From the UHGV virus genome UHGV-0213324: 51,879 nucleotides of DNA; one strand, given 5' to 3'. A program made the position numbers and the translations under genes. The notes under the pieces are model-generated. The model was not told the origin of the DNA and did not search any database. It saw only the letters and a list, made by a program, of their open reading frames with translations. The DNA comes from a virus. This document shows, piece after piece, positions 16,450 through 17,408 of this stretch (within the stretch, counting starts at the first letter, position 1; each line of letters opens with the position of its first letter).

Positions 16450-16608
<159 letters not shown>

Positions 16609-16626
16609 ACTTGTCACGTGATAATT

Positions 16627-17031
16627 ATGCTTGTTGATGCAAATGGCAAAAGCCTAGTAGACCACATCTACCCAATTGGAAGTGTATATATTTCATTTAA
16701 CAGTACTGATCCAAAAGCACTTTTTGGCGGTACCTGGGAAAGAATAAAAGGATATACACCAGCTGGTATCAATGAGGAAGATGATGATACAAACACAAAA
16801 ACTAGTTTTAACCAAAGTGCAGGTAAAACAATTGGTAGTAAGTGGTTGCAAAAGCACCAACATATGTATTGGAACAGTGACGGACGTAGAAATAATGGTG
16901 CGGGTACAGATTGGAACTATCAGGGGGTAGATGTTTCAAAGTTTAGTAATGGAACTGGTTATACTGGTGATGGTGATGCACAAAATATACAACCTACGAT
17001 ATTAGTATATATGTGGAAAAGAACAGCATAA
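16627..17031 (+). CDS. Alternative tail-tip/receptor-binding module 1 (gp53-like/collar-type domain)
   Basis: YPIGSVYIS...DPKALFGGTWERI...NIQPTILVYMWKRTA; N-terminal MLVDANGKSL. Confidence 0.75.
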   Translation: MLVDANGKSLVDHIYPIGSVYISFNSTDPKALFGGTWERIKGYTPAGINEEDDDTNTKTSFNQSAGKTIGSKWLQKHQHMYWNSDGRRNNGAGTDWNYQGVDVSKFSNGTGYTGDGDAQNIQPTILVYMWKRTA

Positions 17032-17054
17032 TTAAAAACAGTCTAAATGCCTTT

Positions 17055-17408
17055 ATGGGCAAACTTAAAGATTCGAGTGGTAAAAAAATTTTGTTGGGAA
17101 CTGTTTTATTTGACGGTGATACAACAAGCAGTTTTACTTTAAAAGATGATTACACCAATTATGATTATCTAGAGGTTATATGGCGTCCGCATTCTACTTT
17201 GGGGCAGTGTTCGGATATGATGATTCCATCTAAAGACAGTAAGATGCATTTGGAACGTGCGCAGGCTATAAATGGTGTTACTACTGTTTATCGGTGTCAG
17301 TTGGCTTTTAGTGGAAAAAATGTATCACTTTCTGGCCGTACTCAGGTTATTAATGGAAATGCAGTTGATGCAGTAGAAGAACATATTTTGAGAGTAATCG
17401 GATATTAA
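17055..17408 (+). CDS. Alternative tail-tip/receptor-binding module 2
   Basis: MGKLKDSSGKKIL; TVLFDG...TLKDDYTNYDYLEV...ILRVIGY fibre-tip pattern; no local SD. Confidence 0.7.
   Translation: MGKLKDSSGKKILLGTVLFDGDTTSSFTLKDDYTNYDYLEVIWRPHSTLGQCSDMMIPSKDSKMHLERAQAINGVTTVYRCQLAFSGKNVSLSGRTQVINGNAVDAVEEHILRVIGY

Follow-up and report, generated by a model that had tools for sequence, protein, structure and literature searches.

Split ribosome-binding sites (RBSs) are known from phage T4, where, in the available text of PMC3014915, a helix between the Shine-Dalgarno sequence (SD) and the AUG of genes 38 and 25 is described as shortening the spacing from 22 to 5 nt and from 27 to 11 nt, respectively. 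The T4 gene 60 bypass is discussed in the same source, and a split site at thrS is treated in the part of PMC3936740 available. Termination-reinitiation is described as relying on an SD upstream of the stop codon, with local structure that blocks de novo initiation (PMC6728339, available text). It is reported to require a stop and a start that overlap or lie less than about 20 nt apart, with reinitiation falling to near zero beyond about 20-40 nt (PMC10666635, available text). Lastly, phage contingency loci, such as the poly-G receptor-binding genes of Fletchervirus, use slippage tracts to vary phage phenotype, including receptor binding (PMC12633550, available text).

We analysed a tail-gene locus of the UHGV virus genome UHGV-0213324 (the window, 51,879 nt in length, one strand read 5' to 3'), which shares parts with each of these systems. 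An 11-nt complementary pair in this locus is probably one of four long-range arms of a phase-variable translational selector that serves five tail-tip cassettes. The arrangement is likely a nested three-way selector of mutually exclusive tail tips. Tail-fibre invertases and shufflons (Mu Gin, P1 Cin) make the same mutually exclusive choice among tail-tip variants, whereas here no DNA rearrangement was seen and the choice is predicted to be translational. In Dscam docking-site/selector pairing, competing long-range RNA helices pick one cassette of an array; Dscam, however, concerns eukaryotic splicing, while the present locus would act where bacterial translation is initiated and assigns each target its own arm. 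The parts thus have precedents, and their combination is without precedent among the systems found: the literature searched (listings and abstract openings, with few subscription titles) contained no description of a frame-selected long-range selector.

As in T4 genes 38 and 25, a helix would restore functional spacing, and relatives from which the first cassette gene is deleted have exactly T4's local form. In place of a short-loop constitutive hairpin, however, the loop here measures 300-900 nt (about 430 nt for gene 17055 in the window) and contains whole genes, and the predicted default fold hides the SD, whose use would hinge on the site at which the leader stops. Two couplings, to genes 1 and 3 in frame C, are ordinary overlaps of the termination-reinitiation kind; for genes 2, 4 and 5, in contrast, the stop-start gap is about 430-830 nt and is bridged by predicted pairing. 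As in SSR contingency loci, there is a simple repeat of variable length (across loci) that shifts the reading frame. Fletchervirus-type tracts are described as intragenic, and the word 'leader' is absent from the available text of PMC12633550; here the tract is part of a leader, and each of the three frames would be productive, picking a different gene.

The locus belongs to a siphophage-type tail module, with the tape measure gene at 8136, Dit at 10929 and tail and fibre genes up to 16432, and five short cassette ORFs (about 100-135 aa) close this module. Holin (18698) and amidase (19261) genes follow 3' of the cassettes, as does a serine integrase (22970-24502). The coding features are:

15467..16432, + strand: tail fibre/adaptor gene, with PHROG tail-fibre matches
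16627..17031, + strand: cassette gene 1, Pfam Gp10_C
17055..17408, + strand: cassette gene 2, SD-less, a predicted beta-sandwich
17596..17961, + strand: cassette gene 3, with its own SD inside a local hairpin
17999..18307, + strand: cassette gene 4, SD-less
18334..18636, + strand: cassette gene 5, SD-less

The structural model of the gene 17055 product is confident (pLDDT 92) and resembles the phi812 baseplate fibre tip (9euf; Z 13.2, rmsd 3.0, 117 aligned), the phage K gp144 C-terminal domain (5m9f; Z 11.2), the T7 gp17 tip (Z 8.8) and the monocin side fibre (Z 7.8); its predicted fold is that of phage receptor-binding tip domains. Family searches returned no family above the cut-off for cassette genes 3-5. 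Sibling cassettes within each phage have N-terminal motifs in common, and an alignment of upstream ORF ends showed that the adaptor's C-terminal helix and AVxY end are common to the genes upstream of many related cassette arrays; this terminus is likely a candidate docking site for the cassettes. A relative of gene 17055, 79% identical, is named as a hypothetical protein of Thomasclavelia ramosa (Coprobacillaceae), which suggests, by sequence similarity, the host group. Between lysin and integrase (21901-22868) lie two genes (192 and 130 aa) that look like phage accessory or toxin-antitoxin-like cargo. A tRNA was the sole Rfam match in the window, with no known RNA family at the selector. Internal promoters were not found in excess (10 observed against 12.0 expected).

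The only long AC and G tracts of the window fall in two leader ORFs, starting at 16450 and 17461, both of which have good SDs. Their elements are as follows:

16450..16608, + strand: leader ORF 1, in frame B in this genome (SD 16438-43; ends at TAG 16606-08)
16496..16523, + strand: (AC)14 tract in leader 1, the sole such tract of the window
16547..16549, + strand: frame-A stop TAA, at the foot of arm A
16549..16571, + strand: arm A, by default a local hairpin followed by a U tract; alternative partner 17413-17433 (-28.2 kcal/mol)
16590..16597, + strand: orphan SD for gene 17055, ending 8 nt before the frame-B stop and partly hidden in the hairpin 16594-16617
16601..16611, + strand: 5' arm B, which holds the frame-B stop and is the complement of 17040-17050
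16622..16631, + strand: second stacked arm, covering ATG 16627 and pairing with 17025-17034 (end of gene 1)
17040..17050, + strand: 3' arm B, 4 nt upstream of ATG 17055
17413..17454, + strand: 3' arm A and a competing hairpin (17427-34/17447-54) predicted to hide the leader 2 SD
17461..17505, + strand: leader ORF 2, with a G9 tract at 17484-92
17493..17538, + strand: arm for gene 5, with its partner at 18290-18328 upstream of that gene (-29.9 kcal/mol) and the G tract as the predicted SD
17548..17568, + strand: orphan SD (17548-55) and arm (17557-68) with the partner 17983-93, upstream of gene 4

In each leader, the length of the tract decides among three stops: 16547 (A), 16606 (B) or 16635 (C) in leader 1 and 17503, 17561 or 17601 in leader 2. 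The frame-C stops overlap the starts of the adjacent genes, TGA 16635-37 that of gene 16627 and 17601 that of gene 17596. Stops 16606, 17561 and 17503 have SDs that end 8, 5 and 9 nt before them, respectively, and lie within arms whose complements directly precede the starts of genes 17055, 17999 and 18334, all of which lack an SD. The remaining stop, 16547, precedes arm A, whose pairing with 17413-33 is predicted to free the leader 2 SD from its hairpin. A small hairpin (16477-16494), after an AAACRC motif and just before the AC tract, recurs in most AC leaders with differing peptide frames; it may be an element for slippage or pausing. Arm A and its U tract (16548-16581) also match an intrinsic terminator, as does 16520-16535; judging from these motifs, transcription attenuation may be layered on the switch.

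The initial annotation had proposed that gene 17055, devoid of an SD of its own, borrows that of the leader across a long loop, and its observations on the sequence were borne out. The 11 nt at 16601-11 are the exact reverse complement of 17040-50, TAG 16606-08 inside the 5' 11-mer ends the current leader frame, and GGTGGTG is present at 16590-96. ATG 17055 scores +0.8 kcal/mol for a local SD, compared with -9.9 for the leader start. The spacing between SD and ATG 17055 across the helix is 8 nt by the original count, or 3+4=7 nt if the SD runs to 16597. The hairpin 16594-601/16610-17 is a perfect 8 bp, with a pairing probability of 0.96 in the unconstrained fold. A start at GTG 17013, which had been raised as the alternative for gene 17055, was rejected: it has no SD, and it is in frame in only 6/14 leader-bearing relatives.

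By itself, the 11-nt match is weak, because an 11-nt complement anywhere in the 468 nt also arose in 81/400 dinucleotide shuffles (palindromes included). Its placement is what is rare, a complement between the first and last 50 nt being seen in 0/400 shuffles. A second helix (16622-31/17025-34) stacks inside the first, the two together reaching -24.3 kcal/mol. Local hairpins win in unconstrained folding; keeping the SD single-stranded brought the 11-bp helix to a probability of only 0.2, and with the leader bases held open the long helices climbed to only 0.2-0.35, so that folding alone is no proof of them.

Natural variants supplied comparative evidence. Among 26 loci with gene 17055, leader and arm occur together in 14; in the 12 leaderless loci the arm is absent and the same ATG is preceded by an AGGAGG-type SD. 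Swapped gene-1 cassettes bring a matching change in the equivalent of the second helix (16622-31/17025-34). In a large group with gene 1 deleted, the SD-arm-ATG arrangement persists as a hairpin with a 6-nt loop, and its helix has two double changes plus G-U pairs. Across 10 distinct arm variants, the positions that are not Watson-Crick comprise 14 G-U, 1 A-C and 2 other. This exclusivity of arm and SD, the persistence of the hairpin and the concerted change argue for the split RBS and for its opening by a ribosome that stops at TAG. As first put forward, that reading was supported but incomplete, for the split RBS would be one of four long-range helices in a repeat-controlled selector; the second stacked helix, the repeat tracts and the three equivalent long-range helices had been omitted.

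Repeated segments next to exchanged genes might also act at the DNA level only, as sites at which segments invert or cassettes are swapped. A serine recombinase is encoded at 22970-24502, and gene 1 is swapped between conserved ends in relatives, as such sites would predict. We nevertheless regard this as the most improbable reading that we considered: the sequence after the arm is inverted in 0/62 (redundant) leader matches, the arms follow stop codons and SDs and accept G-U but not A-C, and four unrelated arm sequences per locus could hardly serve one recombinase. No contig joint that skips gene 1 without replacement was seen among the assembled contigs, a weak result; these contigs break at the AC tract.

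The tracts themselves vary between genomes, as judged from assembled contigs only, which break at the AC tract. AC tracts of close relatives span 22-48 nt, with frames A/B/C represented 3/6/4 times among 13, and G tracts range over G8-11 across loci, with all frames seen. For leader 2, 40 variants were available, 9 with interrupted and 31 with intact G tracts. Of the interrupted tracts, eight share the reading frame of the adjacent gene and one, the ninth, is truncated; 7 belong to loci that visibly have a single cassette. The intact tracts are spread 17/5/9 over the three frames, with three cassettes in 29/31 and truncation in the other two. The locked tracts lend indirect support to a downstream translation that would depend on the upstream termination site. 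AC and G runs could also slip during expression. Ribosomal or RNA-polymerase slippage on the tract would then pick the frame, giving a mixture of tips per infected cell, with DNA length acting as a bias. The slip-prone runs and the conserved small hairpin before the AC tract would suit such slippage, but we consider it quite unlikely, as tract lengths differ among near-identical loci, covering all frames, and single-cassette loci are locked in one frame by tract interruption.

To return to the translational selector, we compared 22 leaders (15 AC and 7 poly-G), hand-picked as non-redundant representatives. The search patterns demanded an SD-like motif after the tract and nothing on stops or arms, and the windows for arms and targets were set by the stop position. 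Loci L019, L099, L101-103, L113, L120, L144, L155 and L157 and similar chance pattern matches were removed ahead of the count, and the 22 likewise do not include L062, L115, L125 or truncated loci. Three stops at the three predicted sites were found in 21/22 leaders. The deviating one, L097, has shorter homopolymers than its relative L141 and a broken gene 1, which may reflect assembly error. For 37/37 stops (that of L097 having been placed by hand), an SD scoring -7 kcal/mol or lower has its end 5-11 nt upstream, compared with 21/626 background stop triplets, and the targets have no local SD stronger than -3.9.

Stop-defined arm/target pairs reached p<0.05 against base shuffles in 30/37 cases (second gene 19/22, third gene 11/15); the 7/37 that miss it are mostly short slot-A helices of 6-7 bp with a spacing of 12-15 nt. 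The cognate target beats every other-family target in 27/37 pairs and in 12/14 families, the family count being the fairer figure because related loci are not independent. Arm sequences are wholly different between families, yet complementarity is kept through the stop. Across the predicted helices, the effective SD-start spacing has a median of 7 nt (range 3-15) and falls within 5-11 nt in 27/37. The outer helix, of the arm A type, scored -23 to -29 kcal/mol in 10/10 loci tested, with a competing SD hairpin in each. Strand asymmetry over the whole duplex was uninformative (20 vs 17).

These loci also bear on programmed bypassing, in which the leader peptidyl-tRNA would hop from the codon preceding the stop to the distant gene and yield a fusion protein, as in T4 gene 60. 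The stop does lie in a hairpin loop, and, in the window, another ATT matching the take-off codon lies in frame upstream of 17055. A matched take-off/landing codon is present in only 9/37 cases, however, in 8 targets the ATG is preceded by no more than two open codons, and leaderless homologues begin at the same Met, making a hop very improbable.

We therefore consider the selector in terms of re-initiation. In the default state, local hairpins would hold all cassettes off. Repeat length would fix the stop codon of the leader, and a ribosome ending there would be handed across the looped-out gene to one cassette. With leader 1 in frame C, translation would couple to gene 1 through the overlap. 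In frame B, the state of this genome, the ribosome would be held on the SD at 16590-97 while the opened arm pairs with 17040-50, and ATG 17055 would be re-initiated. In frame A, arm A would pair with 17413-33 and leader 2 would be freed, whereupon the length of its G tract would pick gene 3, 4 or 5 in like manner. Slipped-strand changes of the tracts would then give phage progeny with different receptor-binding tips. From its sequence, the tract state of this genome predicts gene 17055 as the expressed cassette. With published reinitiation falling to near zero beyond about 20-40 nt, the scheme stands only if the RNA bridge does function.

The chief mechanistic competitor of this scheme is de novo initiation at the split site once it has been opened. 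Selection would again depend on frame; the leader ribosome, however, would open the hairpin and depart without being handed over, and a fresh 30S subunit would initiate at the split RBS. T4 genes 38 and 25 do use split RBSs in ordinary initiation, as far as the available text of PMC3014915 describes them. In addition, the arm would sit in the decoding region of the ribosome at termination and should therefore pair only after release. On the other hand, the placement of the SD 5-11 nt before the stop in 37/37 cases is a geometry that would hold the post-termination ribosome, and the local hairpin readily refolds (0.96). We thus judge initiation by a fresh 30S unlikely, though the least so of the alternatives to the re-initiation selector.

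If the re-initiation selector is real, mRNA structure directs bacterial reinitiation over 300-900 nt, contrary to the current local view, and phages have a route to changed host range beside inversion, diversity-generating retroelements and in-gene frameshifts, one in which all three repeat frames are productive. It would also explain SD-less tail genes and the THTHTH or poly-Gly micro-ORFs that annotation would discard, and it would provide a compact expression switch of the one-of-N kind. Ready-made test constructs exist in nature, in the form of the long-loop, collapsed-hairpin, leaderless and locked-tract variants.

On balance, we lean towards a widespread class of base-3 selectors in phages of gut Bacillota, in which an SSR leader and long-range helices would steer re-initiation past whole genes, each lineage would express one tip of 3-6, and cascades may be nested. 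Held-out leaders with other repeats follow the selector design, with some misses. In the (TCAA)n leaders of L516-L518, stop 2 pairs with gene 2 (-15.4) and stop 1 with gene 3 (-12.2); in the held-out (CATA)n leaders, stop 2 pairs with gene 3 (-17.6, -16.2), a crossed order, and the best partner of the first stop is the adjacent gene, with gene 2 second. L513 and L515 gave one match and three stops without a target (one of an AC leader, -3.6, and two of the TCAA leader of L513), and L514 gave no match.

Regarding distribution, the AC pattern occurred in 4/81 genomes of the family of the nearest genome and in 0/320 others searched in the order. A poly-G scan of the same family returned 4/81 genomes, of which one was known, one was L503 and two were not cassette arrays. 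A strict filter was passed by 3/1324 AC tracts, including L339, over 4/64 parts of the genome collection and 11/64 metagenome parts, the genome-collection scan being heavy in microsatellite-rich contigs. GenBank phages gave no match.

Several further arrangements were observed. One design is shared by repeats of four types (G, AC, TCAA, CATA), whose unit lengths are not multiples of three. In L516/L517 (about 940-3750), two tandem leaders with (CATA)n and (TCAA)n tracts would control six cassettes. L513 (2488-2850) has one long leader with (TCAA)13 and (AC)9 and several SD-plus-stop sites, three of them without an identified target. The poly-G leader segment is apparently duplicated in L143/L494. 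L503 (G076:C3) comprises four consecutive cassettes, each with its own G9 leader and local coupling, possibly a simpler form with independent on/off switches. Finally, in L504 (G049:C3:13586-13658) a G11 leader precedes a gene that resembles an ABC transporter ATPase, and host genes, too, may therefore be subject to leader-based phase variation.
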